Source: Thermoanaerobaculia bacterium
Lineage (GTDB): Bacteria > Acidobacteriota > Thermoanaerobaculia > Gp7-AA8
Length of the DNA: 64,000 nt
Reading direction: 5' to 3'
Assembly (NCBI GenBank): GCA_036380735.1
Contig: DASVEE010000015.1
Span: forward strand, 48,954 to 112,953
Part shown: in pieces, positions 3,487 through 59,416 of the stretch
Layout of the letters: every line of letters starts with the position of its first letter
Position numbering within the stretch: position 1 is the first letter of the stretch
Made by a program: the position numbers and the translations under genes
The notes under the pieces: generated by a model
Told to the model about the DNA's origin: nothing
What the model saw: only the letters and a program-made list of their open reading frames with translations
The model's database searches: none

Positions 3487-3637
3487 GGCCACACCCCCCC
3501 GGAGACACCCCTGCCAGTACACCGCGCATTACTACGAGAGGACATTCCAGGGATCGACTTAGCAACGGCACTGCCAAGGTGCACAGGGAAAGCGGCAGAT
3601 GGGGGGTATGAATAAAAAATGACACCAAAGAGAACGA

Positions 3638-3758
3638 GAGGACGAATAGGACAGATAGGACGAATAGGACCTATAGGACCGCCGCCCAAACCCCGCGCGG
3701 AACTGCCCATGGGACCCCGGTGTCCTATTGGTCCTATGGGTCCTATTCGTCCTATCGT
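3638..3758. repeat. Tandem-repeat-armed hairpin element (GAATAGGAC 9-mer arms)
   Basis: gaggacgaataggacagataggacgaataggacctataggac ... gtcctattggtcctatgggtcctattcgtcctatcgttcc. Confidence 0.8.
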
Positions 3759-3855
3759 TCCCCCTTCCCCCAAACCGGAACAATCGTTCGGTCTCCCCGG
3801 TTGATAAAGCCGTACCGATTTGGTACTGTTTCGCTCCTTCTGCCGCGGACTGACC

Positions 3856-4329: not shown

Positions 4330-5768
<1,439 letters not shown>

Positions 5769-5777
5769 GAAAGAACA

Positions 5778-6535
<758 letters not shown>

Positions 6536-6539: not shown

Positions 6540-7744
6540 CGACCGCCCTCACCAACGAACTGATGAACGATCTTCGCGAGCGGGGAGCGGAGCGCTTCTC
6601 GCAGCTCGGCTGGCCGACGACGCGCATCGAGGAATGGCGCTACACGAACCTGGCGAACGTCGCCAAGGTGGCGTGGCGCAGCGATGACGCGCCGAAAGTG
6701 ATCGAGACGCCGGCGACGCTGGCGGGTCGCGCGACCGTCGAGCTGCTCTTCGTCAACGGACGCCTCGTGCGCACGACGGGCGAAGCGCTGCAGCCGGTCG
6801 AGGCCGAGCGCATCGGCAGCGTCGCGGACTTCGAGAGCCACGCCATGATCGCGCTCAACGCCGCGGAGATGCAGGACGGCGCGCGCTTCCGCGTGCCGGA
6901 CAACGCGGTCGTCGACGGCTTCATCCATCTCCTGTTCGTCGGCAGCGGCGACGGGATCTGGTCGCATCCGCGCAACGTCATCGACGTCGGGCGGAACGCG
7001 CAGGTGCGCATCGTCGAGACCTACGTCGGCAGCGGTGAGTACTTCACGAACGCCGTGACGGAGCTGCTCGCCGCCGAAGGCGCCGTCGTCGATTACACGA
7101 AGGTGGTGTGCGAGGCGGAGAGCGCCACGCACGTCGGCAGCGTGCACGTGCGGCAGGAGCGCTCGTCGAGCGTGACGCTGCACAACATGTCGATCGGCGG
7201 CGCGCTGATCCGCAACGACGTCTACGCGGCCCTGACCGGTGAGGGCGCGAGCGTCGCGCTCGAAGGCCTCTTCGCCGGCGCCGGGAAGCAGCACATCGAC
7301 AACCACACCGTCATCGATCACGTCAGCCCGCACTGCGACAGCCTGGAGCTCTACAAGGGCGTCCTCGACGACCAGGCGCGCGGCGTGTTCGACGGGCGCA
7401 TCATCGTCCGTCCGAACGCCTCGAAGACGGCCTCGAAGCAGTCGAACCACAACCTCCTGCTGTCGGAAACGGCGATCGTCGATTCGAAGCCGACGCTGGA
7501 GATCCACAACGACGACGTGAAGTGCAACCACGGCTCGACGATCGGACAGATCGACGAGGAAGCGCTCTTCTACCTCCGCTCGCGCGGCATCGGCGAGGCG
7601 GAAGCACGCAACCTCCTGGTCTACGCCTTCGCGGCCGAAGTCGTCGACCGCATCAAGATCGAGCCGGTGCGCGAGCAGATCCGGCGCGCGTTGTTCCGCG
7701 CGATTCCGGCGCGCCTGCCGGAGCGCAGGGGAGGTCCACGATGA
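6536..7744 (+). CDS. sufD: Fe-S cluster assembly protein SufD
   Basis: SufB paralog lacking the Cys-rich region, positioned between sufC and sufS; stops and starts overlap. Confidence 0.8.
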
Positions 7745-9437: not shown

Positions 9438-9515
9438 GGCTGTTTTCGGTTGTTGGTTTTCGGTTGTTGGTTAAAAGCCAAACCGAAAACCAACAACCGA
9501 AATCCGAAAACCAAC
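9438..9515. repeat. Tandem-repeat-armed hairpin element (GGTTTTC/GGTTGTT heptamer arms) between sufU and sufT
   Basis: ggctgttttcggttgttggttttcggttgttgg-ttaaaagcc-aaaccgaaaaccaacaaccgaaatccgaaaaccaac; ends 1 nt before the sufT ATG. Confidence 0.85.
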
Positions 9516-9516
9516 T

Positions 9517-10065: not shown

Positions 10066-10068
10066 GTA

Positions 10069-10170
10069 GGGCTCAGGGGTCAGGGCTCAGGGCTCAGGGG
10101 CTGCGCTACACGGACGATGACCGCGCATAGCGGAGCCCCCTGAGCCCTGGGCCCTGAGCCCTGGGCCCCC
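10069..10170. repeat. Tandem-repeat-armed hairpin element (GGGCTCA heptamer arms), core GGCTGCGCTACACGG...CCGCGCATAGCGGAGCC
   Basis: gggctcaggggtcagggctcagggctcagggg ... cccctgagccctgggccctgagccctgggccc. Confidence 0.85.
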
Positions 10171-10188
10171 GTCCGCTACAATGCCGCC

Positions 10189-12034: not shown

Positions 12035-12043
12035 TGATCCTCC

Positions 12044-12484
12044 TTACATCTTGTCTGCGAAGTCGCTGATGACAGGCACTTTCAAACGCTGGCCCGACGT
12101 TGCTTTCACGATGCAGACCACGATGAGAGCGATGTAGGCGAGCCACAGCACGCAGTTCAGCATGGAGAGGCCGCAGCCGACGCCGCTCGGCAGGAAGCGC
12201 ATGAGGACCGTGATGAGGATGTACACCACGATGTAGGCGACGAAGATGGCCAGGCCGTTCTTCGCGTGCCACTGGACTTCGCGGTCTTCCTTCTTCGTGA
12301 GCAGCGGAATCAGGGCGAGCAGCCCCAGGTAAGAGAGGACGAGCATGATCGTGCGATCGCTGCCCGCGCCGCCCGGTGGCGGGTTGTAGCCTCCGCCCGT
12401 TGGCGGTGGCGGCGGAGTGTAGGAGCCGCCTCCCGGAGGCGGAGGTGTAGCAGGGGGAATCGTGGGCGGAGGAATCTCGCTCAT
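12044..12484 (-). CDS. Proline-rich small membrane protein (DUF4870-like)
   Basis: Start at MSEIPPPTIPPATPPPPGGGSYTPPPPPTGGGYNPPPGG, followed by three TM helices; paralogous N-terminal motif to the neighbouring gene. Confidence 0.5.
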   Translation of the reverse strand: MSEIPPPTIPPATPPPPGGGSYTPPPPPTGGGYNPPPGGAGSDRTIMLVLSYLGLLALIPLLTKKEDREVQWHAKNGLAIFVAYIVVYILITVLMRFLPSGVGCGLSMLNCVLWLAYIALIVVCIVKATSGQRLKVPVISDFADKM

Positions 12485-12522
12485 TGCAGCTCCTTCGTTC
12501 TTTCCGAGTTTGGACGTGAATT

Positions 12523-14184: not shown

Positions 14185-14213
14185 AGCGACCGTGGTGTGG
14201 TGAGGTGGGACAT

Positions 14214-14308
14214 GGTTTTCGGTTTTCGGTTTTTGGTTTCTGGTGCTGTGCTACGCGGTGAGTGTCGCGTGGCGCAGCACCGAAAACCAAAAACCGAAAA
14301 CCGAAAAC
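14214..14308. repeat. Tandem-repeat-armed hairpin element (GGTTTTC heptamer arms), core GCTGTGCTACGCGG...CGCGTGGCGCAGCAC
   Basis: ggttttcggttttcggtttttggtttctggtg ... caccgaaaaccaaaaaccgaaaaccgaaaac. Confidence 0.85.
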
Positions 14309-14311
14309 GCC

Positions 14312-15388
14312 TCACACGATCCCCTTCACTTCCTCAAACCACTGCATCATCGATTGCGTCCGCGCCGCGCGCTGTTTCGCGCGTTCCAGGCCCAGCTCGA
14401 GAAGGCGCTCGATGAGGCGGGGGTACTTCATCTCCGTGGCTTCCCACAGCTTGGGGTACATGGAGATGTTGGTGAAGCCCGGGATGGTGTTGATCTCGTT
14501 GATGAAGAGGCGGTTGGTGCCGCGCTCGAGGAAAAAGTCGACGCGGGCGAAGCCGGAGGCGCCGATCGCTTTGAATGCGGTGACGGCGTGGCGGCGGAAC
14601 TCCTCGACCTTCTCCTTCGGCAGCTTCGCCGGGATGAGGAGCTGCGATTTGTTCTCGACGTACTTGTCCATGTAGTCGTAGAACTCGGCGCCGGCGACGA
14701 TCTCGCCCGGGACGGACGCTTCGGGCTTGTCGGTGCCGAGGACGGAGACTTCAATCTCCCGGGCATCGAGGCCGCGCTCGACGAGGACCTTTTCGTCGAA
14801 GCGCAGCGCGTGCTCGATGGCTTTCCCCAGCTCCCCTTCGCCCTTCACTTTCGTCACGCCGACGGAGGAGCCGCTGTTCGCCGGCTTGACGAAGTACGGC
14901 AGGCGCAGCGCGTTGTTGATGGCGCGCGTGACACGTTCGCGCTCGCTCGTCCATTCGCGCTCGTGGACGGCGATGTGGTCGACCATCGGCAGCTTCGCGG
15001 CGGCGAACGCCTGCTTCATGTGCGCCTTGTCCATGCCGATGGCGGAGGAGGTGACGCTGCTGCCGAGATAGGGGAGCCCGAGGATCTCGAGGTAGCCCTG
15101 GAGCGAGCCGTCTTCGCCGCCGCCGCCGTGCACCAGCGGGAAGACGAGGTCGACCTCGACGCCGCGTACCCACTGCTCGAAGAAGAAGCCGGTATCGCCC
15201 TGCTCGCTCTTCTCTTCGCCGGCGAGGATGCGCGCGCTGCGCTCCGGCGCGATGAAGCGGCCGTCTTTCCCGATGCAGATTGGCGTCAGCTCGATGCGCG
15301 GCGGTGCGGCGCCCGCGACCGAGCGCGCGGAGAGGATGGAGACTTCATGCTCGGGGCTGCGGCCGCCGAAGAGGAGGATGACTTTCAT
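14312..15388 (-). CDS. ddl: D-alanine--D-alanine ligase
   Basis: MKVILLFGGRSPEHEVSILSARSV... and ATP-grasp motifs (FVKPANSGSSVGV). Confidence 0.9.
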   Translation of the reverse strand: MKVILLFGGRSPEHEVSILSARSVAGAAPPRIELTPICIGKDGRFIAPERSARILAGEEKSEQGDTGFFFEQWVRGVEVDLVFPLVHGGGGEDGSLQGYLEILGLPYLGSSVTSSAIGMDKAHMKQAFAAAKLPMVDHIAVHEREWTSERERVTRAINNALRLPYFVKPANSGSSVGVTKVKGEGELGKAIEHALRFDEKVLVERGLDAREIEVSVLGTDKPEASVPGEIVAGAEFYDYMDKYVENKSQLLIPAKLPKEKVEEFRRHAVTAFKAIGASGFARVDFFLERGTNRLFINEINTIPGFTNISMYPKLWEATEMKYPRLIERLLELGLERAKQRAARTQSMMQWFEEVKGIV

Positions 15389-15393
15389 TTGGC

Positions 15394-15473
15394 GTCGTTG
15401 TCCGTTGTCCGTTGTCCGTTTTCCGTGGCGCCCGGTGAAACCACGGACAACGGAAAACGGACAACGGACAACG
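15394..15473. repeat. Tandem-repeat-armed hairpin element (GTCCGTT heptamer arms)
   Basis: gtcgttgtccgttgtccgttgtccgttttccgtgg-cgcccggtgaaa-ccacggacaacggaaaacggacaacggacaacg. Confidence 0.85.
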
Positions 15474-15479
15474 CGTCAG

Positions 15480-17018
15480 TTACGGTGTCGGGATCGATCC
15501 CAGCAGGTACTTCAGGTCTTCATCGCGCCAGCGGATGCCGCCGCCGAAGGTGAAGGCGGTGTCGTTGAGGGCGTTGTCGACACCCGAGGTCACGAAGAGG
15601 CGCGGGGAGTTGGGCTTCTCGCGCCGGAACGTGTACTCGGCGAAGGTACGGATGTGGGGGTTGTCGTCGCGCTGCTGCCCGAAGTCGAACGCCTCGGCCG
15701 TCACGCGCAGACGGTCGTTGACGTTGTAGTCGGCGCCGACGCCGCCGGTGGAGTCGAAGAGGCCGATGCGCAGCGCGAGGTCGTCGAACACCCAGCCCGC
15801 CTGCGCGGAGAGGAGGAAGTCGCGCTCGTAGCGGCTCTGCTCCGTCACGATCGTCTCGGACTGGCCCGTGTCCGGATTCGTGCGCGTCTCGACGATGGTC
15901 TTGTCGCGCCGCTTGCCGCGCGGATCGTCGACCAGCTCGATGTTGTAGAAGCGGTTGAGGTCGGGGTTCGGCTGCACGCGCGCCATGACCGCGGTGCGCG
16001 AGCTCCCTTCGAAGCCGGTCTCGACGCCGGTCAGCGGATCGGTCGCGCTGTTCTGGCCGATGTAGTAGTCGCCGCGGATGCCGAGGTCGAGGCGGAGGCG
16101 GCCGATGCGTCCGAGCGTGTTGCGCAGCTCGTTCACGCCGCTTTCGACGGAGCCGAGGGCCGCGGTGAGGCGGTCGTGCGCTTCGTCGCTGTAAATCAGC
16201 TTGCCCACGGTGCCCTGGCCGGTCTGCACCTGGCCGGTGATGGCGTTCAGGTTGTCGGCGGTGGTGCGCAGGTCGGTCGAGAGACCTTTGATGTTCTGCA
16301 CGACGGCGCGGACGTCTTCGCGGTTCTCGCCGACGGTGCCGGCGATCTGATTCGCCACGCGGTCGAGCGAGTCGGCGAGGCGGGGGATCTCGACGCGGAG
16401 CTGCGCCGTGATCTCGCGGGCGTTGCCGAGCGTGGCGTCGACGTTCTCGCGGTTCGCGGAGATGAGGAGGCGCACCTGCATCGTGATGTCGCGGACGTTC
16501 TCGACGATGTCGGTGAGGCGCTGCTCGTTGCCCGGTCCGGCGAGGACCTGGCGCAGCGAGGCGGTGATGGCTTTGACGTCGGTGGCGATGTCGGAGACCT
16601 GCGTCGTGACGTCGTCGATCGAGGCGGGCTGCGTGCCGGAGAGCGTGACGACGTCCGTCTGGATGACCGGCGCTTCAGGGCTGCCGGGATCGAGCTCGAT
16701 GTACTTCTCGCCGAGGAGGCCGAGGTTGGCGACGCGCGCGGAGGCGTTGGCGCGGAGGGGGACGTCGTTGTCGACTTGCAGCGTCACTTCCGCGCGGCCG
16801 TCGGGACGCACCTTGATCGAGCGCACGGTGCCTTTGCGGACGCCGGCGATGCGCACGGCCGACTTTTCATCGAGACCGGCGACGTTGTCGAACAGCACTT
16901 TCACTTCACGGGTGCCGGCCCCTCGTCCGAGGTCGATGTCCTCGATCTTGAGGACGAAGAACCCCAGGACCCCGAGGGCGATGAGCATGACGAGGCCGAC
17001 TTTGGCAGCAGAAGACAT
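15480..17018 (-). CDS. MCE/MlaD-family protein with long C-terminal extension
   Basis: N-terminal TM followed by an MlaD/Mce domain (VKVLFDNVAGLDEKSAVRIAGVRKGTV), then coiled-coil-like repeats. Confidence 0.75.
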   Translation of the reverse strand: MSSAAKVGLVMLIALGVLGFFVLKIEDIDLGRGAGTREVKVLFDNVAGLDEKSAVRIAGVRKGTVRSIKVRPDGRAEVTLQVDNDVPLRANASARVANLGLLGEKYIELDPGSPEAPVIQTDVVTLSGTQPASIDDVTTQVSDIATDVKAITASLRQVLAGPGNEQRLTDIVENVRDITMQVRLLISANRENVDATLGNAREITAQLRVEIPRLADSLDRVANQIAGTVGENREDVRAVVQNIKGLSTDLRTTADNLNAITGQVQTGQGTVGKLIYSDEAHDRLTAALGSVESGVNELRNTLGRIGRLRLDLGIRGDYYIGQNSATDPLTGVETGFEGSSRTAVMARVQPNPDLNRFYNIELVDDPRGKRRDKTIVETRTNPDTGQSETIVTEQSRYERDFLLSAQAGWVFDDLALRIGLFDSTGGVGADYNVNDRLRVTAEAFDFGQQRDDNPHIRTFAEYTFRREKPNSPRLFVTSGVDNALNDTAFTFGGGIRWRDEDLKYLLGSIPTP

Positions 17019-17021
17019 GGT

Positions 17022-17651
17022 TCAGAGCTCCGGCCGCGCATTGTAAAGCGGATTGCCGGACGGATCGCCGGGGCGATTGCTGAGCGGATCGATGCCTGCG
17101 CGGCGCAGCATCTGGAAAAGCGTCGCCAGCGGGAGCCCCACCACGTTCGTGTAGCTGCCGTGGATGGACTCGATGAACATGGCGCCGATGCCCTGCACGG
17201 CGTAGGCGCCGGCCTTATCCATCGGCTCGCCGGTGCTCACGTACCAGGCGATTTCGTCGTCGGAGAGCGGCAGCATGCGCACTTCCGACTCGGCCACGCG
17301 CGTCTCGTGGTGCTTCCGCTCGAGGTTCACCAGCGTCACGCCCGTGTAAACAATGTGGGTCTGGCCGGCGATGGTCTTCAGCATGCGCCGCGCGTCGGCT
17401 TCGTCGACAGGCTTTTCGAGGAGCTGCTCGCCGAGGAGGACGGTGGTGTCGGCGGCGATGACCCAGCGCGAGGGATGCTCCTGCGCCAGCGCCGCCGCTT
17501 TGTCGCGCGAGAGCCGCGCGACGTACTCCTCCGGTGCTTCTCCGTCCGCGCGCACTTCGGGGACGTGCGACGGCAGGACGTCGAAGTCGAGACCGATGGA
17601 CGCGAGCAGCTCGCGCCGCCGCGGCGAAGCGGAAGCCAGGATGAATTTCAC
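17022..17651 (-). CDS. maf: Maf-like nucleoside triphosphate pyrophosphatase
   Basis: KFILASASPRRRELL...; GTG start inferred; its start overlaps the stop of the upstream toxin gene. Confidence 0.8.
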   Translation of the reverse strand: MKFILASASPRRRELLASIGLDFDVLPSHVPEVRADGEAPEEYVARLSRDKAAALAQEHPSRWVIAADTTVLLGEQLLEKPVDEADARRMLKTIAGQTHIVYTGVTLVNLERKHHETRVAESEVRMLPLSDDEIAWYVSTGEPMDKAGAYAVQGIGAMFIESIHGSYTNVVGLPLATLFQMLRRAGIDPLSNRPGDPSGNPLYNARPEL

Positions 17652-17908
17652 CGGAGCGGTCTCTCCTCGATGCGCACGATGGCCAGGATCAGCACATACC
17701 GCGCCTCCGCCACGATCCGGTAGAGGATGCGCAGCCCGCCGATGCGATGGCTCCACAGGCCGCGCAACGGCTCGAAGAGGGGCGTGCCGACGATGGGGTC
17801 CTCGTCGATGATCTCCAGCGTCTTCATGACCAGGGCGCGCTCGTCGGAGTTGAGCGCTGCCCAGTCGTCGGCCACGGATTGGGCCAGGCGGAGGCGGTTA
17901 TGCCACAC
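17648..17908 (-). CDS. RelE/ParE-family type II toxin
   Basis: ...LEIIDEDPIVGTPLFEPLRGLWSHRIGGLRILYRIVAEARYVLILAIVRIEER; start trimmed to the GTG downstream of the repeat hairpin; the longer ORF-track N-terminus is repeat-encoded (TDNGPRTTDN). Confidence 0.65.
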   Translation of the reverse strand: MWHNRLRLAQSVADDWAALNSDERALVMKTLEIIDEDPIVGTPLFEPLRGLWSHRIGGLRILYRIVAEARYVLILAIVRIEERPLR

Positions 17909-17920
17909 ACGCCACCTCGG

Positions 17921-18013
17921 CCGGTTGTCCGTTGTCCGTGGTCCGTTGTCCGTGCTGGCGCTGCACGGACGCATAGCGCAGCACGGAAAACGGAAAACGG
18001 ACAACGGACAACG
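17921..18013. repeat. Tandem-repeat-armed hairpin element (GTCCGTT heptamer arms) between antitoxin and toxin genes
   Basis: ccggttgtccgttgtccgtggtccgttgtccgtgctg-gcgctgcacggacgcatagcgcag-cacggaaaacggaaaacggacaacggacaacg. Confidence 0.85.
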
Positions 18014-18019
18014 CGTCCC

Positions 18020-18277
18020 TCACCCCAGATCCTCCACTTCCAGCACCGCCCCCGCGCGCACCTCTTCTTCCGCGCGGTTCAATCTGGCCGTGACGTTCGC
18101 GTCGTTGGCCAGCTCGATCGTTTCGCGGAGGGCAAAGTATTCGTCGTAGGAGACGAGCATCACGACCGGGCGGCCGTGGCGCTCGAAGATGGTGCGTTTG
18201 CCCGTGAGCTCGCACTCGAGCACGAGCTCGCGAGCGTCGGGCGGAAGGTCGAGGATCTCGGTGCGGCGCTCGCGCAT
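18020..18277 (-). CDS. Phd/YefM-family antitoxin
   Basis: ...FERHGRPVVMLVSYDEYFALRETIELANDANVTARL..., matching the Phd/YefM signature; lies upstream of the RelE-like gene. Confidence 0.65.
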   Translation of the reverse strand: MRERRTEILDLPPDARELVLECELTGKRTIFERHGRPVVMLVSYDEYFALRETIELANDANVTARLNRAEEEVRAGAVLEVEDLG

Positions 18278-18283
18278 GGCGGC

Positions 18284-19207
18284 TTACGGTTTGGTGGCGA
18301 CCTTGCGCGGTCCGCGATGCGAGGCGCGTGGATGCTCGTCGCGGTTGGCCACGAGGTCCTCGATGAACGCGTCGAACTCCTCGCCGAGCTGCTCGTGGCG
18401 CAGCGCGTAGTCGACCGTCGCCTTGAGGTAGCCGAGCTTCTCGCCGGCGTCGTAGCGGCGTCCTTCGAAGACGTAGCCGTAGAAGTCGCCGGTGCGCACC
18501 AGCTCGCGCAGGGCGTCGGTGAGCTGGATCTCGCCGCCGGCGCCGCGCTCGGTCTTCTCAATGAGGGGGAAGACGTCGGGCGGCAGGATGTAGCGGCCGA
18601 TGATGGCGTAGCGCGAGGGGGGATTGACCTTCGGTTTCTCGACCATGTCGCGCACGCGGAAGCGGCGCTCGCCGACCATCTCGCCGGCGACGATGCCGTA
18701 GCGCGAGGTCTGATCGGCGCTCACTTCCATGAGCGCGATCACAGGTCGTCCGGTCTCCTCGAACACGCGGCGCATCTGCAGGAGGCACGGATCGTCGGCG
18801 AGGATCACGTCGTCCGGCAGCACGACGGCGAATGGCTCGTTGCCGACGGCGTCGCGGGCGGTGAGCACGGCGTGCCCGAGCCCGAGGGCTTCCTTCTGGC
18901 GGACCGCGATGAGGTCGGCCATGCGGCTGACTTCCTCCACCTCGGCCAGGAGGTCATCCTTGCCGCGATGGCGCAGCGAGCGCTCCAGCTCCGAGGTGCG
19001 GTCGAAGTGATCGAGGATCGTCTCTTTGCCCTTGGAGGTGACGATGATCAACTTGTCGAGCCCCGACCCGAGCGCCTCCTCGATCCCGTACTGCAGGATC
19101 GGCTTGTCGACGAGCGGCAGCATCTCTTTCGGAATGACCTTGGTGGCCGGAAAGAAGCGGGTGCCGAAGCCGGCGCAGGGAAAGACGCACGTGCGTAGCT
19201 GAGACAT
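18284..19207 (-). CDS. galU: UTP--glucose-1-phosphate uridylyltransferase
   Basis: VFPCAGFGTRFFPATKVIPKEMLPLVDKPILQY nucleotidyltransferase motif. Confidence 0.9.
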   Translation of the reverse strand: MSQLRTCVFPCAGFGTRFFPATKVIPKEMLPLVDKPILQYGIEEALGSGLDKLIIVTSKGKETILDHFDRTSELERSLRHRGKDDLLAEVEEVSRMADLIAVRQKEALGLGHAVLTARDAVGNEPFAVVLPDDVILADDPCLLQMRRVFEETGRPVIALMEVSADQTSRYGIVAGEMVGERRFRVRDMVEKPKVNPPSRYAIIGRYILPPDVFPLIEKTERGAGGEIQLTDALRELVRTGDFYGYVFEGRRYDAGEKLGYLKATVDYALRHEQLGEEFDAFIEDLVANRDEHPRASHRGPRKVATKP

Positions 19208-19223
19208 GAGGCGGTTGTATCAC

Positions 19224-19330
19224 AAAGGACGGAAGGGACCGATGGACCGATCGGACAGACCGCGCAAGTCCGGGTGGGCGGGGTCCCATCCGTCCTATCG
19301 GTCATATACGTCCCATTCGTTCCATCGTCC
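19224..19330. repeat. Tandem-repeat-armed hairpin element (GGACCGAT / GTCCTAT-type arms)
   Basis: aaaggacggaagggaccgatggaccgatcggacag ... gggtcccatccgtcctatcggtcatatacgtcccattcgttccatcgtcc. Confidence 0.7.
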
Positions 19331-19348
19331 GCCCCATTCCCATGCAAA

Positions 19349-20005
19349 ATGCGGCCACGCATGGAACTCCTCCTCTGGCGCTGGAGCACCACAGCGCAGA
19401 TTGCGTCCGCGTTCATGATCGCGGTCTTCTTCGTGGTGCTCAGCCGCCCGGTGCGGCGCGTGGAGCTGCGCCCGTGGGTCGCCGCGTGGCTGGCGATGAC
19501 GCGCTCGAACCGGGACCTGCTCGACGCGCAGGAAGTGCTGCAGGACCTGGTCGACCTCGATCCGCTGACGGGACTGGCCAACCGGCGCGCGCTGCCGGCG
19601 GTGTTCCGCGAGTCGTCCGAGAGCGGCGCGACGATCCTCTTCTTCGACCTCAACGACTTCAAGCGCATCAACGACGCGCACGGCCACGCCGCGGGCGACG
19701 ATTGCCTGAAGCGCTTCGCGCGCGCCCTGCAGTCGTCCTTCCGGCCCGACGATCACCTGATCCGCTACGCCGGCGACGAGTTCGTCGTCGTGGCCCCGGG
19801 AGTCGCGCCGCCCGACCTCGGCCGCCGCATCGACGCGCTACGCGAGCGGCTGAAGTTCGACCGCAACGAAGGACCGGAGATCCGCTTCTCCGTCGGCACC
19901 TCGCATCTGCCGGTGCACGGCGACGCGCAGGCTGCCCTGCGCGCCGCCGATGACGCGATGTACGTGGAGAAGTCGCGGAAGAATCAGCGCGCGGAGCTCG
20001 GCTAG
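19349..20005 (+). CDS. GGDEF-domain protein with degenerate A-site (RYAGDEF) and a single N-terminal TM
   Basis: DPLTGLANRRAL...FFDLNDFKRINDAHGHAAGDDCL...LIRYAGDEFVVV; start set after the GTCCTAT repeat array. Confidence 0.75.
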   Translation: MRPRMELLLWRWSTTAQIASAFMIAVFFVVLSRPVRRVELRPWVAAWLAMTRSNRDLLDAQEVLQDLVDLDPLTGLANRRALPAVFRESSESGATILFFDLNDFKRINDAHGHAAGDDCLKRFARALQSSFRPDDHLIRYAGDEFVVVAPGVAPPDLGRRIDALRERLKFDRNEGPEIRFSVGTSHLPVHGDAQAALRAADDAMYVEKSRKNQRAELG

Positions 20006-20036: not shown

Positions 20037-20798
20037 TCATTTCGCGCTGAGCGCCTTCGCCTCGCGCAGCATCTCGTCGGCGCGGGCCCGGACGCGGTAA
20101 TCCTCCGTCAGGTTGCGCCAGCGCACGACGCCGTTGCGATCGATCAGGAACTCCGCCGGCCGTGCGGTCGGTCCGCCGCCCATGCCGGATTTCTCGTGGA
20201 GCAGGTCGTAGCGGCGAATGACGTTACCTTTAGGATCGCCGAGAAATGTGTACGAAAATGCAGATCCGTAATGCTTCTTGGTGACCTCGGCGGGATCGAT
20301 GCTGATCGCGATCGGCTTCACGCCGGCCGCTTCGAATTCGGGAAGACGCTGCTGGATACTCCGTAACTCGGAGTTGCAGAACGGTCACCAGTAGCCGCGG
20401 TAGAAGATGAGCAGGACGCCGTTCGAGCCGGCGAGCGTCTGCGACAGCGTGACCGGCTTGCCGTTCGTGTCGGCCAGCGTGAAGTCGGGCGCCTTCTGTC
20501 CCGGAGCCGGCGAGCCCGCCGCGCCCGGCATCCCGCCGCGCGTGGAGGCGATCGCGAAGACGAAGGCGCCGGCGATGACCACCCCCAGCACGGCCACGAT
20601 CGAGGCCAGCACTTTTTTCGGCGCCCGTCGCCAGCCGGTGACGAGGAGCACCAGCGCGAGGACGAAAAGGGCGTAGTTCACCCAGGGCACATCGCGCGTG
20701 ACGGGATAGTTGACGAACACCGTGAAGTAGGTGAGGAACGCGGCCACACAAAGCAGTAGCCCCGTCCAGAGCGGCCAGTTGAAGCGTTTCTGCTGCAT
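20037..20798 (-). CDS. Redoxin (AhpC/TSA / thioredoxin-fold) with in-frame TGA at the first Cys of the CxxC motif; candidate selenoprotein (UxxC), or a pseudogene
   Basis: One continuous reading frame across two ORF-track fragments; ...GVLLIFYRGYW-TGA-PFCNSELRSIQQRLPEFEAAGVKPIAISID...; the TGA at 20385-20387 falls exactly where Cys is expected; N-terminal TM anchor. Confidence 0.55.
20345..20384 (-). promoter_or_regulatory. Candidate bacterial SECIS-like stem-loop immediately 3' of the in-frame UGA
   Basis: mRNA CUGC-A-ACUCCG-AGUUA-CGGAGU-AUCCA-GCAG beginning about 8 nt after the UGA: 6-bp upper stem, 5-nt loop, 4-bp lower stem. Confidence 0.3.
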
Positions 20799-22947: not shown

Positions 22948-22950
22948 TGC

Positions 22951-23096
22951 GAACTTCGAATGAAGAATTTCGAATGAAGAATTGAGGTGCGCCGCTTCGC
23001 GGCGGCGCTGTTCATAGCTGCGGTGGCGAAGCCACCGCACACCACAATTCGAAATTCGAACCTCTTCATTCGAACTTCGAAATTCGCCTCTCCTCG
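22951..23096. repeat. Tandem-repeat-armed hairpin element (GAATGAA/GAATTTC/GAACTTC heptamer arms) with long GC-rich core
   Basis: gaacttcgaatgaagaatttcgaatgaagaattg ... aattcgaaattcgaacctcttcattcgaacttcgaaattcg; the core is itself palindromic (cgcttcgcggcggcgctg ... cggtggcgaagccaccg). Confidence 0.85.
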
Positions 23097-23102
23097 AGGC
23101 CT

Positions 23103-26660: not shown

Positions 26661-26703
26661 TGTAGATGGGGAGGGACCAACCAACGGGCGATACCGATGA
26701 ACC

Positions 26704-26805
26704 GAATTAAGAATTTCGAATTTCGAATGAAGAATGGCTGCGCTGTCCGGGGGCAGACCGTGGGTGGGGGGGACTTCGAAATTCGAAATTCGAAATTCTT
26801 AATTC
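26704..26805. repeat. Tandem-repeat-armed hairpin element (GAATTTC/GAATGAA heptamer arms), core GGCTGCGCTG...
   Basis: gaattaagaatttcgaatttcgaatgaagaat-ggctgcgctgtccgggggcagaccgtgggtggggggga-cttcgaaattcgaaattcgaaattcttaattc. Confidence 0.85.
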
Positions 26806-26912
26806 ACTCTCCGCCCCCTAAATCCCGAACGATCCGCGATCCAGTTCTCCCCGCCCCCAACGCGACCCCGCTCACAGTCCCCCGCCCACCAACTGGTTTA
26901 ACATCCCGCCCC

Positions 26913-27911
26913 ATGGTCCTGATCAACAAGGCGATCAACGAGGTGACGGTCAAGCTGGTCTACTACGGCCCGGGCCTCTGCGGCAAAACCACGAACCTGG
27001 AAAAGATCTACGGCAACCCGAAGCTCGAGAACAAAGGGAAGATGATCTCGATGGCGACGGAGACCGACCGGACGCTGTTCTTCGACTTCATGCCGATGGA
27101 GCTCGGCACGATCGCCGGGCAGAAGGTGCGTGTGCAGCTCTACACGGTGCCGGGGCAGGTGTTCTACGACGCCACGCGCAAGCTCGTCCTGCGCGGCGCC
27201 GACGGCGTCGTCTTCGTGGCCGACTCGCAGAAGTCGATGCGCGAGTCGAACCTCGTCAGCCTGGAGAACCTGAAGACGAACCTGCGCATCAACCGCATCG
27301 ATCCGGACAAGGTGGCGATCGTCTTCCAGTACAACAAGCGCGATCTGCCGACGGCGGCCACGGTCGAAGAGATGACGGAGTACCTCGAGCCGGGCAATGC
27401 GCCGATCGTCGAAGCGTCGGCCATCAACGGCGCCGGCGTGACGGCGACGCTGCGCGCGGCGGTCTCGAAGATCCTCGACAACCTGAAGAACAACGTCGAC
27501 GTGACGCTGTACGAAGCGGCGCCGCTGGCCGCGCCCGACATGACGCAGAAAGCGGGCGTGACGCCGTCGTCCGCCGGCACGCCGAAGCTGTCGATGAAGA
27601 ACGAAAACCTCATGCGCACCGACCCGGTGCCGGTCGCGTCGTTGCCCCCGGAGCCCGAGCCCGCGCCCTTCGAGGTGCCGTTCGCCGCCGTCGAAGCCGC
27701 GGTCGATACCGCCTTCGACAGCGCCATCGACACCTCGATCGCGGTCGAAGTCCAGGACGATCCGTTCGCCTCGCATCACGAAGAGGAGCCGCGCATCGAC
27801 CTCTCCGCCATGCTGGCAAGCGCCCGCGCGGTCGTGGCGTCGCTGGAAGCCGCGCTGGAAAAAGCGCGGGAACATGAACGGTCGATCCAGGAACAGATGA
27901 ACCGCGGATAG
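26913..27911 (+). CDS. MglA-like Ras-superfamily small GTPase with about 130-aa low-complexity C-terminal extension
   Basis: VKLVYYGPGLCGKTTNLEKI (P-loop), LYTVPGQ (switch II), FQYNKRDL (NKxD); no MglB/roadblock partner adjacent; gene bracketed by two same-family repeat hairpins. Confidence 0.75.
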   Translation: MVLINKAINEVTVKLVYYGPGLCGKTTNLEKIYGNPKLENKGKMISMATETDRTLFFDFMPMELGTIAGQKVRVQLYTVPGQVFYDATRKLVLRGADGVVFVADSQKSMRESNLVSLENLKTNLRINRIDPDKVAIVFQYNKRDLPTAATVEEMTEYLEPGNAPIVEASAINGAGVTATLRAAVSKILDNLKNNVDVTLYEAAPLAAPDMTQKAGVTPSSAGTPKLSMKNENLMRTDPVPVASLPPEPEPAPFEVPFAAVEAAVDTAFDSAIDTSIAVEVQDDPFASHHEEEPRIDLSAMLASARAVVASLEAALEKAREHERSIQEQMNRG

Positions 27912-27915
27912 GCCG

Positions 27916-28010
27916 GAATTTCGAATGAAGAATTTCGAAGTTCGAATGAAGAATGGCTGCTGGCCAGTGCGTTTCTAAATTCAACATTCGAAATTCGAAA
28001 TTCTTCATTC
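27916..28010. repeat. Tandem-repeat-armed hairpin element (GAATTTC/GAATGAA heptamer arms), core GGCTGCTGGCCAGTGCG
   Basis: gaatttcgaatgaagaatttcgaagttcgaatgaagaat ... aaattcaacattcgaaattcgaaattcttcattc. Confidence 0.85.
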
Positions 28011-28072
28011 ACCGTTTCCCTCATCCTCACGTCGTTCCTACTCCCCACCTGTTATAAAGTGCCCCCCGCCCA

Positions 28073-32165: not shown

Positions 32166-32170
32166 CAGGG

Positions 32171-32296
32171 GAACGATAGGACCTATAGGACGAATAGCAC
32201 CTATAGGACGGATAGGACCCCGCCACCCGAGATCCGCCTTTGACGTTGTCCTCTAGGTCCCATCCGTCCCATCCGTCCTATAGGTCCTATCGTCCC
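32171..32296. repeat. Tandem-repeat-armed hairpin element (ATAGGAC 9-mer arms) between bshA and the slt gene
   Basis: aacgataggacctataggacgaatagcacctataggacggataggac ... gtcctctaggtcccatccgtcccatccgtcctataggtcctatcgtcccc. Confidence 0.8.
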
Positions 32297-32297
32297 C

Positions 32298-36947: not shown

Positions 36948-36955
36948 TCTAGCCC

Positions 36956-37027
36956 GAGGACGAATAGGACCTATGGGACGCCCTATTTGTCCCATCTGTC
37001 CTATAGGTCCTATTCGTCCTATCGAGC
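36956..37027. repeat. Tandem-repeat-armed hairpin element (ATAGGAC 9-mer arms, very short loop)
   Basis: gaggacgaataggacctatgggacg-ccctatttgtcccatctgtcctataggtcctattcgtcctatcgagcc. Confidence 0.75.
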
Positions 37028-37048
37028 CCATGCCCTAAACTCAGCAGC

Positions 37049-38455: not shown

Positions 38456-38545
38456 GAATTGAGAATTCCGAATTGAGAATTGAGAATTGGCTTCGCTGGC
38501 CGGTGCGCAGCTATCTCAATTCTCAATTCCCCAATTCTCAATTCC
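38456..38545. repeat. Tandem-repeat-armed hairpin element (GAATTGA heptamer arms), core GGCTTCGCTGGCCGGTGCGCAGC
   Basis: gaattgagaattccgaattgagaattgagaattg-gcttcgctggccggtgcgcagctatc-tcaattctcaattccccaattctcaattcc; the right arm overlaps the last codons of the VanX-like gene. Confidence 0.85.
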
Positions 38546-39230
38546 GGATCTCCGTCAGCGGCACGTTCATCAGGTCGAACCTCTGCCACCCGCCAAAGTC
38601 GTAGTGCCACCATTCCGACGGCAGCGGTTCGAAGCCGTGCTTCACCATCACGTCACGTAGCCTTGCGCGATTGACCAGCACGTCGGCCGACAGGTCGTTG
38701 AAGTCGTGGCGGGCTCTCGGGGTGAAGTCGTCGTACGGGGTGGGCATCGCCAGCTCTTCGCCGGTGCGCAGGTCGATCAGCGTCAGATCGACCGCCGCGC
38801 CGCGGTTGTGGCGCGAGCCCTTCGACGGATCGGCAACGTAGTCGGGGTTCTTGATCGGCTCCCACATCCGTTCCGTGATGCTGTAGGGGCGGTAGCCGTC
38901 GAAGACCTTCAGCCCGAGACCGTCGGCGGCGAGCTCCTGCTGCACGGCGGCGAGAGCTCGTGCGGCGGGCGCGCGGAGATACGCCTTTGCCACCGGGTAC
39001 AGCGTCGTCTTCATGAAGTTGTTGTCGGTGGCGTAGCGGATGTCGAGACGCACGCCGGGAATGGTGGAGAGGTCGACGAGACGCGTCTCCGCGTTAGCAG
39101 CGGCGAGCCGCTCGTACGTCGCGGCGTCAGGGACGACGCGCAGCCCGTATCGGTTGGCGGGGATGTCGGGCGCGGAGGCGCAGGCGGCAACCAGCAGCAG
39201 AAGCGGGATCAGACGTCGCATGCCGCGCAT
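38538..39230 (-). CDS. D-Ala-D-Ala dipeptidase (VanX/DdpX, peptidase M15D), secreted
   Basis: ...SRHNRGAAVDLTLID...E...HYDF motifs, so His/Asp/His zinc ligands are present; signal peptide; the last codons lie inside a repeat-hairpin arm. Confidence 0.7.
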   Translation of the reverse strand: MRGMRRLIPLLLLVAACASAPDIPANRYGLRVVPDAATYERLAAANAETRLVDLSTIPGVRLDIRYATDNNFMKTTLYPVAKAYLRAPAARALAAVQQELAADGLGLKVFDGYRPYSITERMWEPIKNPDYVADPSKGSRHNRGAAVDLTLIDLRTGEELAMPTPYDDFTPRARHDFNDLSADVLVNRARLRDVMVKHGFEPLPSEWWHYDFGGWQRFDLMNVPLTEIRN

Positions 39231-39297: not shown

Positions 39298-40485
39298 ATG
39301 GAACTCGACATCTTCTTTTCGATCTGCCAGACGGAAGTGAACGGCTATCTGCCGAGCGAGCGCGTCATGTTCGAGAACTTCTTCGAACAGGTCGACCTCG
39401 CCGACCGCCTCGGCTTCGGCACCGCGTGGGTGGCGGAGAGCCATCTCTCCACGGAAGTGCAGAAGACGAACCCCGGCGCGGTGATCCCTCACTTCGTCGG
39501 CGAGATCGGGCTCAACACCGACATTCTCCAACTCGCGCACAAGGTGTTCGCGCGGACGAAGCGGATCGGCATCGGCTCCGCGATCCTCAACATCCTCTGC
39601 AACGGCGGCCCGATCGCGCACGCGGAGCGGATCAAGACGTTCCTCTCGCTCCATGGGCTCGACCCGCACGAAACGCGCACGCTGACGATCGGCTTCGCGT
39701 CCGGCCGCTTTCCCTTCATCAACATCCCGTACGGCATCGTGCCGCGGAATGCGGTGGAGGAGGCGGCGTGGCCGGTGGTGAAGAACAAGATCTTCGAGGA
39801 GGCGACGGAGATTTTTCTCCGCCTGCTCAAAGGGGAGACGCTCAACTCCTCGATGATTGCCACGCGCACGATGAAGCGGGCCGACTTCCGCAAAGACGAG
39901 GACTGGCAGCGTGTGCAGGAAGCCTACGGGCAGCCGGCGGAGGAGATTCCGCTCGCCGCGCGCTGGCCGTTCCCCAACCTCAAGATCGTGCCCGAGGAGC
40001 CGCGGATGGAACTGCTGCGCCTCTCGATCGGCTCGCACGACCCGGCTACGCAGATCTTCGCCAACACGATCCTCCCGGTCGGCGTCTTCAACCTCTCGAT
40101 CACCCCTGGGGACGAGATCGAGAAGACGAACGAGCGGATGCAGACGCACTACCACCCCGACGGCGGCGGCTGGCAGCGCCGGCTGATGCCGCGGACGGTC
40201 CTGGTCTTCATCAACGACGACGATCCGGCGAAGGCGCACCAGGAGGCGCGCGACGCGCTGTCCAACTACTGGCGCGCGCTCGAAGGGACTCTGGACGAGG
40301 AGAAAGTGCGCCGCGCCACGAACAACGCGCTGGTCGGCAACGCCGAACAGATCGCCGCCCAGATGCAGGAGCGCTTCCATTCGGACGACCGCCTGATGCT
40401 GTGGTTCGACTTCAATAATCACGACTCGAAGAGAGTCATGAAAAACATGCACGATTTCATGACGAAGATACCGCATAACAAATAG
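39298..40485 (+). CDS. LLM-class (luciferase-like) flavin-dependent oxidoreductase
   Basis: Bacterial-luciferase TIM-barrel family features; start at MELDIFFSI. Confidence 0.6.
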   Translation: MELDIFFSICQTEVNGYLPSERVMFENFFEQVDLADRLGFGTAWVAESHLSTEVQKTNPGAVIPHFVGEIGLNTDILQLAHKVFARTKRIGIGSAILNILCNGGPIAHAERIKTFLSLHGLDPHETRTLTIGFASGRFPFINIPYGIVPRNAVEEAAWPVVKNKIFEEATEIFLRLLKGETLNSSMIATRTMKRADFRKDEDWQRVQEAYGQPAEEIPLAARWPFPNLKIVPEEPRMELLRLSIGSHDPATQIFANTILPVGVFNLSITPGDEIEKTNERMQTHYHPDGGGWQRRLMPRTVLVFINDDDPAKAHQEARDALSNYWRALEGTLDEEKVRRATNNALVGNAEQIAAQMQERFHSDDRLMLWFDFNNHDSKRVMKNMHDFMTKIPHNK

Positions 40486-40594
40486 GACGAATAGGACGAA
40501 TAGGACCAACAGGACCGATGGGACCGACAGCACCTACCGACAGCCGGGCGCAGCGTCCCGTTCGTCCTATTCGTCCTATAGGTCGTCCTATCGT
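40481..40594. repeat. Tandem-repeat-armed hairpin element (ATAGGAC 9-mer arms), core contains GGGCGCAGC
   Basis: aataggacgaataggacgaataggaccaacaggaccgatgggaccgacag ... gtcccgttcgtcctattcgtcctataggtcgtcctatcgttgcc. Confidence 0.75.
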
Positions 40595-41282
40595 TGCCCT
40601 GCTGCTGGCTGCAGGGCTGCTGCTGTTTGGCGCCTTCCACCTCAGCCGGTCCCGGACCTTCCAGCTTTTCGGCACGATCGTCCAGCGCGTCGACACCGAG
40701 CGCCGCGTCGTGGCGCTGACCTTCGACGACGGGCCGACGCGCGAGTACACGGACAGCGTCCTGGCCACGCTGCGGCAGCACAACGTCCGCGGGTCTTTCT
40801 ACCTCGTCGGGCGCGACGTTCAGCGGAACCCGGACCTCGTGCGGCGCATCCTGGCCGAGGGGCATGAGGTCGGGAACCACTCCTGGTCGCATGAGCGGAT
40901 GCTGCTGAAGTCGCCCTCCTGGATTCGCGGCGAGGTGGAGAATACCGACCGCGTCCTGCGCGCCGCCGGCGTCACCGGCCCGATCCACTTCCGCGCGCCG
41001 TACTGCAAGAAGCTCGTCGGTCTGCCGTGGTACCTCGCCCGGACGAACCGCACGCACGTCACCTTCGACGTCGAGCCCGAGACCGAGGAGCGGGTGGCCG
41101 CGTCCGCCCAGCTCATTGCCGATGACGTCCTGCAGAAGGTGCAGCCCGGATCGATCATCCTGCTCCACGTGATGTTCCGCAGCCGGGAAGAGTCGCGCAA
41201 GGCGCTGCCGCTGATCATTCCGCGCCTGCGCGCGGCCGGCTATGACTTTGTGACCGTGTCGGAGCTGCTGGCAATGCGGTAG
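40518..41282 (+). CDS. Polysaccharide deacetylase (NodB-homology domain), membrane-anchored; 5' end uncertain
   Basis: VALTFDDGP...HNVRGSFYLVGRD...GHEVGNHSWSH NodB motifs; the annotated N-terminus overlaps a GTCCTAT repeat array, so the real start is probably near [10 protein letters not shown]. Confidence 0.75.
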   Translation: MGPTAPTDSRAQRPVRPIRPIGRPIVALLLAAGLLLFGAFHLSRSRTFQLFGTIVQRVDTERRVVALTFDDGPTREYTDSVLATLRQHNVRGSFYLVGRDVQRNPDLVRRILAEGHEVGNHSWSHERMLLKSPSWIRGEVENTDRVLRAAGVTGPIHFRAPYCKKLVGLPWYLARTNRTHVTFDVEPETEERVAASAQLIADDVLQKVQPGSIILLHVMFRSREESRKALPLIIPRLRAAGYDFVTVSELLAMR

Positions 41283-41288
41283 AAGCTT

Positions 41289-41392
41289 GAACGCAGAACG
41301 CAGAACGCAGAATGCAGAACGCAGAACGCAGAATTGAGAACGCGGTTGCCCCTTTTCAACGTTCTGCGTTCTGCGTTCTGCATTCTGCATTC
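41289..41392. repeat. Tandem-repeat-armed hairpin element (GAACGCA heptamer arms)
   Basis: gaacgcagaacgcagaacgcagaatgcagaacgcagaacgcag-aattgagaacgcggttgccccttttcaac-gttctgcgttctgcgttctgcattctgcattc. Confidence 0.85.
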
Positions 41393-41461
41393 ACGGTTCT
41401 GCCTTCAAACCCCGGCGCAATAGGACAGAGGCGCCCCACCGTTTAGAATGGCCGCCTCGCC

Positions 41462-43964: not shown

Positions 43965-44044
43965 GAATTGAGAATTGGCGAATTGAGAATTGAGAATCGC
44001 GTAGCGCAACCCATTCTCAATTCTCAATTCCGAATTCTCAATTG
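43965..44044. repeat. Tandem-repeat-armed hairpin element (GAATTGA heptamer arms), core CGCGTAGCGCAACCC
   Basis: gaattgagaattggcgaattgagaattgagaat-cgcgtagcgcaaccc-attctcaattctcaattccgaattctcaattg; ends 9 nt before the downstream ATG (GAGGAAG Shine-Dalgarno partly inside the arm). Confidence 0.85.
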
Positions 44045-45295: not shown

Positions 45296-45378
45296 GATCG
45301 GATTGAGGATGGCTTCGCTGGGCGGAACGTTTCGCCGAGCGCAGCCATCCTCAATCCTCAATCCTTCATCCTCAATCC
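45296..45378. repeat. Tandem-repeat-armed hairpin element (GGATTGA heptamer arms), core GGCTTCGCTGGGCGGAACGTTTCGCCGAGCGCAGCC
   Basis: ggatcggattgaggat ... atcctcaatcctcaatccttcatcctcaatcc; the right arm is longer than the left. Confidence 0.8.
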
Positions 45379-45384
45379 CGATAG

Positions 45385-46311
<927 letters not shown>

Positions 46312-46317
46312 CAACCC

Positions 46318-46414
46318 GAACGCAGAACGCAGAACGCAGAATGACGAATTGAGAAAGGGGACCGATCGTGGTGCGCAGCATTTCTTCGTTCGACGTTCTG
46401 CGTTCTGCGTTCTG
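46318..46414. repeat. Tandem-repeat-armed hairpin element (GAACGCA heptamer arms)
   Basis: gaacgcagaacgcagaacgcag-...ggtgcgcagc...-cgttctgcgttctgcgttctg. Confidence 0.85.
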
Positions 46415-46419
46415 ACTTC

Positions 46420-51520: not shown

Positions 51521-51646
51521 GCGCGCGCATTATGCCGGAGGCGTGCGGGGATGGAACCGATGGCCGAATGGGACACCACGATGTTGACCACGACACATCC
51601 TCCGTCCCATCGGCCTTTCCCGGCCGTCTGATATATTCGCGCGCCT

Positions 51647-58367: not shown

Positions 58368-58379
58368 GAGGTAAGACAG

Positions 58380-59408: not shown

Positions 59409-59416
59409 CCTCGACC

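Follow-up and report, generated by a model that had tools for sequence, protein, structure and literature searches.

Why should a toxin-antitoxin pair be held apart by a hairpin? In a 64,000-nucleotide (nt) stretch of a soil Thermoanaerobaculia (Acidobacteriota) genome (contig DASVEE010000015.1, positions 48,954 to 112,953 of the forward strand), hereafter the window, a gene for a Phd/YefM-family antitoxin is followed by a gene for a RelE-fold toxin, and the spacer between them is taken up almost entirely by one stem-loop with arms of repeated GTCCGTT-type heptamers. A preliminary description of this DNA, made from the sequence alone, left two answers side by side: an attenuator that would lower toxin translation relative to the antitoxin, or an insertion that has decoupled the pair. 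We consider it most probable that an inherited pair, sitting in a string of housekeeping genes, received in one lineage an insert from a generic class of hairpins, and that the hairpin is not a device specific to toxin-antitoxin (TA) control.

The antitoxin-toxin junction in related genomes

The locus was compared among sixty species-level Thermoanaerobaculia/Acidobacteriota genomes and several metagenome contigs encoding the toxin. The gene order galU-phd-relE-maf-mlaD was retained wherever the flanks were present, in about 60 species-level genomes. The premise of the preliminary description, that type II pairs normally overlap or abut, applies to the orthologues: at 17 loci, each from a different species, the toxin starts 11 nt inside the antitoxin gene ([T/A]TGTGGAATGA), with a GGAGGA 8-9 nt upstream of the toxin start in the last antitoxin codons, and at 8 further loci the two genes are 2-4 nt apart. 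The 11-nt overlap is scattered across the whole of a neighbour-joining (NJ) tree of Maf and MlaD, the deepest branches included, and on this ground we took it as ancestral. An insert of 52-417 nt separates phd from relE in 24 of 58 loci and folds strongly in 21 of these 24; more than half of the orthologous loci have no hairpin insert. The element of the window recurs at two loci, L001 and L008. Since these share the element and the overlap is taken as ancestral, the window hairpin is best described as a lineage-specific insertion in three related species. The comparison with the orthologues, by which the insert has removed the overlap in this lineage, supports the reading of an insertion that decoupled the pair.

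The junction inserts fall into 14 unrelated sequence clusters, 13 of them besides that of the window. Five are foldbacks with heptamer arms, namely GTCCGTT (the window, L001 and L008), GAAGGCA (L002 and L010), GGGATGA (L013, L018 and L019), GGACTGA/GGGACTT (L022 and L037) and GATCAGT (L044). The other nine are not heptamer-array foldbacks and are mostly other long palindromes, with L009 lacking a strong hairpin. The inserts change quickly. Heptamer copy number is not the same in the near-identical strains L002 and L003, and in L001 and L008 the element of the window has grown to 174 and 267 nt by nested CAAAAAC/GGTTTTT arrays, a growth which, as read from the sequences, shows rapid elaboration in place. 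These second arrays (L008 5734-6000, L001 1073-1246) are nested or interleaved with the first, GGTTTTT on the 5' side and CAAAAAC in the loop, and in L008 the order is A-B-A'-B'. At the L037 junction (960-1421) a 417-nt GGACTGA/GGGACTT array reaches into the last antitoxin codons and provides the antitoxin stop. At L005 the antitoxin and toxin overlap, and a different hairpin (gtctgtgattttcgttttttt ... aaaaaaacgaaaatcacagac) lies between the toxin stop and maf (5247-5320).

How does this junction compare with its neighbours? Spacers of at least 40 nt occur at 0 of 61 galU|phd junctions, 24 of 58 phd|relE, 8 of 63 relE|maf, 20 of 60 maf|mlaD, 19 of 42 mlaD|ddl and 18 of 38 ddl|abc junctions. 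The phd|relE junction is thus invaded about as often as neighbouring junctions outside the pair (33-47%), which argues for a generic repeat tolerated where coupling is dispensable and against an attenuator specific to the TA pair. At galU|phd and relE|maf the junctions are protected. Of the eight relE|maf inserts that could be classified, seven belong to species in which phd and relE are fused, and the eighth, in L047, stands beside an 11-nt overlap.

Then, how were both genes preserved when the insert arrived? The 8 nt that precede the antitoxin stop in several insert families still look like the ancestral overlap (TTGAGGGA-TGA and TTGGTGAA-TGA against TTGTGGAA-TGA), with a mean of 3.8 matches in 8 over a background of 1.8, and the toxin side retains ATGTGGAATGA. 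The two flanks of the insert in the window, GATCTGGGGTGA on the left and GTGTGGCATAAC on the right, look by eye like the L016-type junction GATCTGGAATGAC. Such flanks would fit an insert bordered by a duplication of about 8-11 bp, either a target-site or a selected duplication, with a moderate fit in the window clade. In the GGGATGA and GGACTGA families the heptamer array itself provides the antitoxin stop codon.

On the toxin side, insert-bearing loci all start with ATG except the window, which has GTG, and TTG starts are restricted to overlapped loci (12 of 17). The start-codon pattern hints at compensation for the lost coupling, in species that are not phylogenetically independent. A GGGAGG or GGGGGG occupies the Shine-Dalgarno position in the window clade, and most other insert-bearing loci have none there. 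The window has lost both the overlap and the shared Shine-Dalgarno, and its toxin has its own GAGG-GTG. Among the window, L008 and L001 the antitoxin gave a ratio of nonsynonymous to synonymous substitution rates (dN/dS) of 0.02-0.10 and the toxin one of 0.09-0.15, compared with 0.05 for galU and 0.16 for mlaD. Because both values are low and like those of galU and mlaD, the split pair is still maintained, and the substitution ratios place both genes under purifying selection. Ahead of the conserved WNDRL, the toxin frame of L016 (about 1414-1424), L024 (about 5440-5450) and L029 (about 6001-6011) has no ATG, GTG or TTG, its sequence being TGA TGG AGG TCG AAG ATC TGG AAT GAC, and the toxin of these three may use a non-canonical start (AUC) or frameshifting from the antitoxin frame.

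The course of events that we favour would be as follows. A vertically inherited Phd/YefM and RelE-fold pair would have formed part of a galU-phd-relE-maf-mlaD-ddl housekeeping string, with the first 11 nt of the toxin gene (starting TTG or ATG) overlapping the antitoxin gene and GGAGGA in the last antitoxin codons, so that overlap and Shine-Dalgarno together would have coupled the translation of the two genes. A foldback, each arm made of four GTCCGTT/AACGGAC heptamers, would then have entered exactly at the junction in the lineage of the window, L008 and L001, and a TGGAATGA-like copy on each side would have saved the antitoxin stop and the toxin start.

Hairpins with tandem heptamer arms

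The arms of the spacer hairpin (17924-17957 and 17979-18012) are 34 nt each and 91% complementary. In the mRNA a GC-rich apical stem-loop is flanked by (GTTGTCC/GTTTTCC)x4 as the 5' arm and by (GGACAAC/GGACCAC)x4 as the 3' arm. The spacer RNA has a minimum free energy of -71.2 kcal/mol (z = -5.6), which none of 200 shuffled sequences reached, and the stem ends 11 nt from the toxin GTG. No U-tract follows the stem, which runs into CCGGCCGAGGUGGCGUG. An intrinsic (Rho-independent) terminator, or classical attenuator, was set aside because of this missing U-tract. A scan of 15200-19500 for sigma-70 promoters and, on both strands, for intrinsic terminators found nothing at the hairpin, and Rfam at gathering thresholds returned no family in the whole window.

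The hairpin is one of many. The window contains 14 occurrences of GTCCGTT-type 13-mers where 2.2 are expected, and the first 30 nt of a second copy at 15396-15473 are near-identical to the copy between antitoxin and toxin, while its loop is different. About 20 hairpins with arms of tandem 7-mers or 8-mers occupy roughly half of the intergenic spacers of the window. Of the 34 intergenic spacers that measure 30 nt or more, at least 14 hold hairpins of period 7, with units that include GAACGCA, GTTTTCG, GGGCTCA, GAATTGA, GGATTGA and GAATTTC/GAATGAA; others hold hairpins of period 8, of the type ATAGGACN. Most of these hairpins lie between tightly packed co-directional genes and begin 0-7 nt past a stop codon.

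Beyond the window, an exact-pattern scan found the GTCCGTT hairpin in at least 120 metagenome contig stretches. In 80 copies that were read, the loops were all different and the heptamer arms were the only common part; most copies were intergenic, within about 20 nt of gene ends, and in their flanks neither a GTAG nor a CGTC head was conserved. The orientation of the arrays was addressed by a strict scan that covered the window and 62 loci (L002, L005 and L008-L067): in 25 of 27 informative heptamer hairpins the G-richer array lies 5' of the loop, in the other two the C-richer comes first, and the asymmetry holds on either strand, that is, it is strand-symmetric. The same material contains at least 24 different heptamer units, among them GTCCGTT, GAAGGCA, GGGATGA, GGACTGA, GAACGCA and GTTTTCG, and most are not prone to form G-quadruplexes (G4). 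In the literature we found nothing specific on heptamer-arm hairpins in Acidobacteria or Thermoanaerobaculia, the nearest precedent being the GGGAATC arrays of Xanthomonas. As part of the explanation given at the outset, and with the same good confidence, we regard the hairpin as a member of a genome-wide, fast-evolving intergenic class with tandem 7-mer or 8-mer arms that colonises gene junctions generally.

What could such an insert do to the transcript? By analogy with REP/ERIC-type palindromes and with the stem-loops of kis-kid and axe-txe, a stem-loop of -71 kcal/mol in the polycistronic RNA would block coupled translation, in that terminating ribosomes would not re-initiate. The 34-bp stem might also act as a 3'-exonuclease barrier for the upstream segment, as a target of double-strand RNases, or as both. 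Together these effects would favour the output of galU-phd over that of relE-maf-mlaD. A polar effect on toxin and maf expression is thus plausible as a by-product of the insertion.

Several points weigh against the explanation that we prefer. No transposase, the RAYT type included, is linked to the element, the proteins of the window not having been scanned for Y1 transposases. The Maf and MlaD tree is a rough one, and the gene map of the window is crude, based on GC content at third codon positions (GC3). Flanking duplication in the window clade is moderate, with matches at 4 of 8 positions in the strict comparison and at 6 of 8 when set by eye beside the L016-type junction. The tolerance of inserts is uneven among the junctions (none at galU|phd, few at relE|maf, many at phd|relE), and selection may specifically allow or favour the uncoupling of antitoxin and toxin. 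The element has been kept in three species at a synonymous distance (dS) of about 0.5, with a new Shine-Dalgarno behind it, and may by now be useful. Finally, every effect on the RNA is one that we infer from analogous systems.

Identity of the pair and competing explanations

The antitoxin matches the Pfam family PhdYeFM_antitox (PF02604) at 30.7 bits over residues 16-76, with a cutoff of 29.8. The NCBIfam search gave sub-threshold matches only, the model phd_fam scoring 19.4, just under its cutoff of 20.8. The gene lies directly upstream of the toxin gene on the same strand, a pairing retained in about 60 species. The toxin scores 24.7 bits against PF05016, the RelE/ParE superfamily model, with a cutoff of 23, and the identical 86-amino-acid (aa) protein at NCBI, from a Thermoanaerobaculia metagenome-assembled genome (MAG), is named a RelE/ParE family toxin. 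In a comparison of the toxin-family profile with the PDB the best solved relatives were Mycobacterium tuberculosis RelE2 (Rv2866) and Escherichia coli RelE. An AlphaFold (AF2) model of the toxin reached a predicted local distance difference test (pLDDT) score of 90, and Foldseek placed it closest to M. tuberculosis RelE2 and RelE1 and to E. coli RelE (top matches 3g5o_B, 9g12 and 4fxe; template modelling (TM) scores 0.76-0.83, and 0.80 for 3g5o_B; root-mean-square deviation 1.1-2.2 Å), with ParE structures scoring lower. Both proteins therefore pass their Pfam cutoffs, in agreement with the Phd/YefM and RelE-like assignments first made from the sequence, and profile and predicted fold of the toxin agree with the second of these; at the level of the predicted fold the label RelE-like is correct. 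A ParE (gyrase-poison) identity, prompted by the Pfam name, was set aside because fold and profile are nearer RelE, and we file the protein as RelE-fold within the RelE/ParE superfamily.

Of the catalytic set of E. coli RelE (K52, K54, R61, R81 and Y87), R61 aligns with an invariant Arg in the profile alignment, K52 and K54 are unmatched in the toxin family, and most members end at residues 80-86, before the position of Y87. Other RelE-family toxins have different catalytic residues. In 11 species (L053, L057-L059 and L061-L067) Phd and RelE form a single in-frame open reading frame (ORF) of about 160-170 aa with no internal stop, and in most of these species the hairpins are found at the toxin|maf junction instead.

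These features raise the question of whether the pair is still, or ever was, a classical addiction or stress module. It could instead be a domesticated Phd-RelE-fold complex, linked to Maf and the envelope operon, whose stoichiometry is non-critical, so that insertions are tolerated; this is compatible with the insertion of a generic hairpin as set out above. The locus is fixed in about 60 species, and there is no room for a promoter or operator of its own, the antitoxin ATG lying 6 nt past the galU-like stop in the window and the gap never reaching 40 nt in relatives. The pair is fused in frame in the 11 species and also in P0027, and coupling to maf through a 4-nt overlap is close to universal (about 50 of 63 loci). 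The short C-terminus and the unmatched lysines point the same way. However, membership in the Phd and RelE families is clear by sequence and fold, the many Arg, Tyr and Glu residues that are invariant could make up an active site, and fused, chromosomally fixed TA modules can still be toxic. We hold domestication to be a serious possibility that nonetheless falls short of being probable.

A dedicated attenuator, a hairpin that evolved or was kept to lower toxin relative to antitoxin at the level of translation or transcription, is unlikely. The stem is very stable and sits exactly between the two cistrons, three related species have kept it and have gained a new Shine-Dalgarno behind it, most phd|relE inserts fold strongly, and tuning of the antitoxin:toxin ratio at the RNA level is known for kis-kid and proposed for axe-txe (PMC3760812). 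The comparison nevertheless does not support this suggestion of the preliminary description. The hairpin is missing from more than half of the orthologous loci, and in other species 13 unrelated inserts take its place at the same site. Similar hairpins are equally frequent at junctions outside the pair and fill about half of the spacers of the window, the stem has no U-tract, and the arm mismatches among the window, L001 and L008 are uncompensated on inspection of three copies that differ by heptamer indels and nested arrays.

Could the hairpin mark the end of one transcript, relE-maf-mlaD being read from a separate promoter? Such a U-tract-independent (I-shaped) terminator, or operon breakpoint, after galU-phd would suit the frequent position of hairpins of this class directly after stop codons. 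In the clade of L015, L027, L032 and L025, different inserts share a conserved gcTATAAACTcc at their 3' end. Lying some 10 nt before the toxin ATG, this sequence is similar to a -10 box and may serve as an internal promoter for relE-maf. In the window, however, neither a T-run after the stem nor a sigma-70-like promoter between hairpin and toxin was found, only 11 nt lie between stem and GTG, and most such hairpins lie between tightly packed co-directional genes. A breakpoint is in our view improbable.

That the toxin is read through the repeat from an upstream TTG at 18004 (an in-frame ORF of 118 aa, 17648-18004, is present), or that the pair is a decaying pseudogene, is most improbable, as the preliminary description had already judged of read-through: the conserved N-terminus MW(N/H)DRLR, shared by 26 homologues, starts precisely at GTG 17908, NCBI calls the identical protein in its 86-aa form, the Pfam match starts only at residue 43 of the 118-aa ORF, and the toxin dN/dS is low.

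The coordinates first given for the antitoxin, toxin, spacer, hairpin and maf overlap were all confirmed (Table 1). The overlap of the toxin stop with the maf start, also part of the preliminary description, is real and is the same 4-nt overlap that recurs among the relatives. Read from this GTG, the Maf protein matches its Pfam family already from residue 2. The toxin/maf overlap and the gaps of 6 and 3 nt to galU and mlaD fit co-transcription of the string. Elsewhere in the crude gene map of the window, tracts of 0.4-1.4 kb without a confident ORF occur at 6540-7521, 12035-12522, 20322-20730, 26685-28072, 38456-39039, 47881-48450, 50683-51646 and 61993-62709. AATTCTC and AAATTCG heptamers abound in two of these tracts, 38456-39039 and 26685-28072, and the tracts may be repeat clusters or missed genes. 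A tRNA/tmRNA scan of the whole window gave no match.

Table 1. Positions of the genes and repeat elements discussed, in window numbering unless a locus is named
Feature	Coordinates	Strand	Basis or remark
galU-like nucleotidyltransferase gene	18284..19207	-	Pfam NTP_transferase 2.5e-31; first of the co-directional string
Phd/YefM-family antitoxin gene, 85 aa	18020..18277	-	PF02604; identical NCBI protein named Phd/YefM antitoxin
Antitoxin-toxin spacer, 111 nt	17909..18019	-	Insertion relative to the inferred ancestral 11-nt overlap
Foldback hairpin in the spacer	about 17921..18015	-	Fold and arm complementarity; orthologous element in L001 and L008
GAGG, Shine-Dalgarno-like motif	17915..17918	-	Read from sequence; follows directly on the 3' side of the stem, with 6 nt to the toxin GTG
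RelE-fold toxin gene, 86 aa, GTG start	17648..17908	-	PF05016, profile against PDB, AlphaFold and Foldseek, N-terminus
GTGA: toxin TGA (17648-17650) overlapping maf GTG (17649-17651)	17648..17651	-	Sequence
maf gene (nucleotide pyrophosphatase family)	17022..17651	-	Pfam Maf 4.9e-65, residues 2-184
MlaD/MCE-domain gene	15480..17018	-	Pfam MlaD 1.7e-20; 3 nt after the maf stop
Second GTCCGTT-type hairpin, mlaD stop / ddl-like start	15396..15473	-	-61.6 kcal/mol
ddl-like gene, next in the string	14312..15388	-	tblastn orthology; L002 orthologue with Dala_Dala_lig Pfam domains, window copy by orthology
Window hairpins	785-921, 3600-3800, 9438-9516, 10066-10188, 14185-14311, 15389-15479, 22948-23102, 26685-26830, 27900-28072, 32166-32297, 36948-37048, 40470-40600, 41283-41461, 43965-44041, 45296-45393, 46312-46419, 58299-58379, 59409-59460
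Fused Phd-RelE ORF, example	L053 5740-6240		Antitoxin start to toxin stop

Significance and comparison with known systems

Taken singly, the locus is fairly ordinary, a generic repeat inserted at an operon junction. Its context, with recurrent invasion, diverse foldbacks and a maf-coupled, sometimes fused pair, is moderately interesting. The Phd-RelE pair is atypical for a type II module, because its position is fixed class-wide, it has no promoter space of its own, its coupling to maf is near-universal and fusions occur. About 60 genomes in which the pair is overlapped, separated by any of 14 types of hairpin or insert, or fused make up a natural experiment on coupling and stoichiometry in a RelE-type module, and the near-invariant coupling of toxin and maf points to an unexplored functional link. 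Annotation of MAGs of this class should expect heptamer-arm hairpins at gene boundaries, and these hairpins are a tractable system for the origin of repeats and their effect on polycistronic mRNAs.

A broader reading would join the two subjects, an undescribed and diverse class of foldbacks in Thermoanaerobaculia and an interrupted Phd-RelE pair that is domesticated, its coupling dispensable. The foldbacks would insert precisely at stop/start junctions, often giving the stop codon and duplicating the overlapped segment, and could have arisen by transposition, or by repeat addition at breaks followed by template switching. Phd-RelE would then not be an addiction module but a class-wide complex, fused in some species, with its translation coupled to that of Maf. 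We offer this combination tentatively and find it, as a whole, rather doubtful.

Among known TA systems, the pair is like RelBE2 (Rv2865-2866) and RelBE1 of M. tuberculosis, E. coli RelBE and YefM-YoeB/Axe-Txe in the fold and profile of the toxin and in the Phd/YefM-type antitoxin upstream. It differs from RelBE and YefM-YoeB in a toxin shorter at the C-terminus with K52, K54 and Y87 unmatched, and in the class-wide fixed locus, the lack of promoter space, the coupling to maf and the in-frame fusion in some species. With kis-kid and axe-txe it shares a bicistronic antitoxin-toxin operon with a stem-loop. Translational coupling, limited degradation of the mRNA and stem-loops all shape the antitoxin:toxin ratio in kis-kid (parD of R1) and axe-txe (PMC3760812). 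The structures there are integral, conserved and experimentally tested, whereas here the stem-loop is a lineage-specific generic repeat known from sequence.

Among repeats, malE-malF provides the classical example of a repetitive extragenic palindromic (REP) sequence. REP sequences, bacterial interspersed mosaic elements (BIMEs) and enterobacterial repetitive intergenic consensus (ERIC) repeats are like the present hairpins in being dispersed, intergenic and hairpin-forming, often within co-directional operons, and variable between relatives. Roles proposed for REP/BIME and ERIC-type repeats include mRNA stabilisation, termination and supercoiling (PMC3733652). The arms here differ from all of these in consisting of tandem 7-mers or 8-mers, with many units per genome and a unique loop in each copy, and from REP sequences also in the absence of a GTAG/CGTC head in the 80 copies and in stems of about 34 bp as against REPs of 20-40 nt. 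Membership in the REP/BIME group was rejected for an element of about 93 nt with heptamer-array arms and no conserved head. Of the marks of MITEs (miniature inverted-repeat transposable elements), inverted arms and dispersed copies are present, with flanks matching at 4 of 8 positions in the window, unique loops and no known parent insertion sequence (IS). Eukaryotic foldback (FB) transposons have long inverted arms of short tandem repeats, variable in copy number, around a variable middle; they are far larger, and some carry a transposase. Their likeness to the heptamer foldbacks is a structural analogy only, with no homology implied.

The closest likeness is to Xanthomonas. In X. campestris and X. 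axonopodis, GGGAATC heptamer arrays lie between genes, often in convergent orientation, and a stem-loop is possible (Rehm et al. 2015, PMC4692102); the length of the arrays differs between close relatives while the site is kept (PMC4692102). Those arrays are built on one dominant, G4-prone unit and belong to a different phylum, whereas at least 24 units, most of them not G4-prone, are in use here, and insertion inside a toxin-antitoxin pair is not described for arrays of that type. The hairpin of the window is, like them, a convergent heptamer tandem array, and the two share intergenic tandem 7-mers, convergent pairing, a copy number that varies between relatives and the G-rich array in first place. 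The Xanthomonas GGGAATC arrays are thus the nearest published precedent at the level of DNA.

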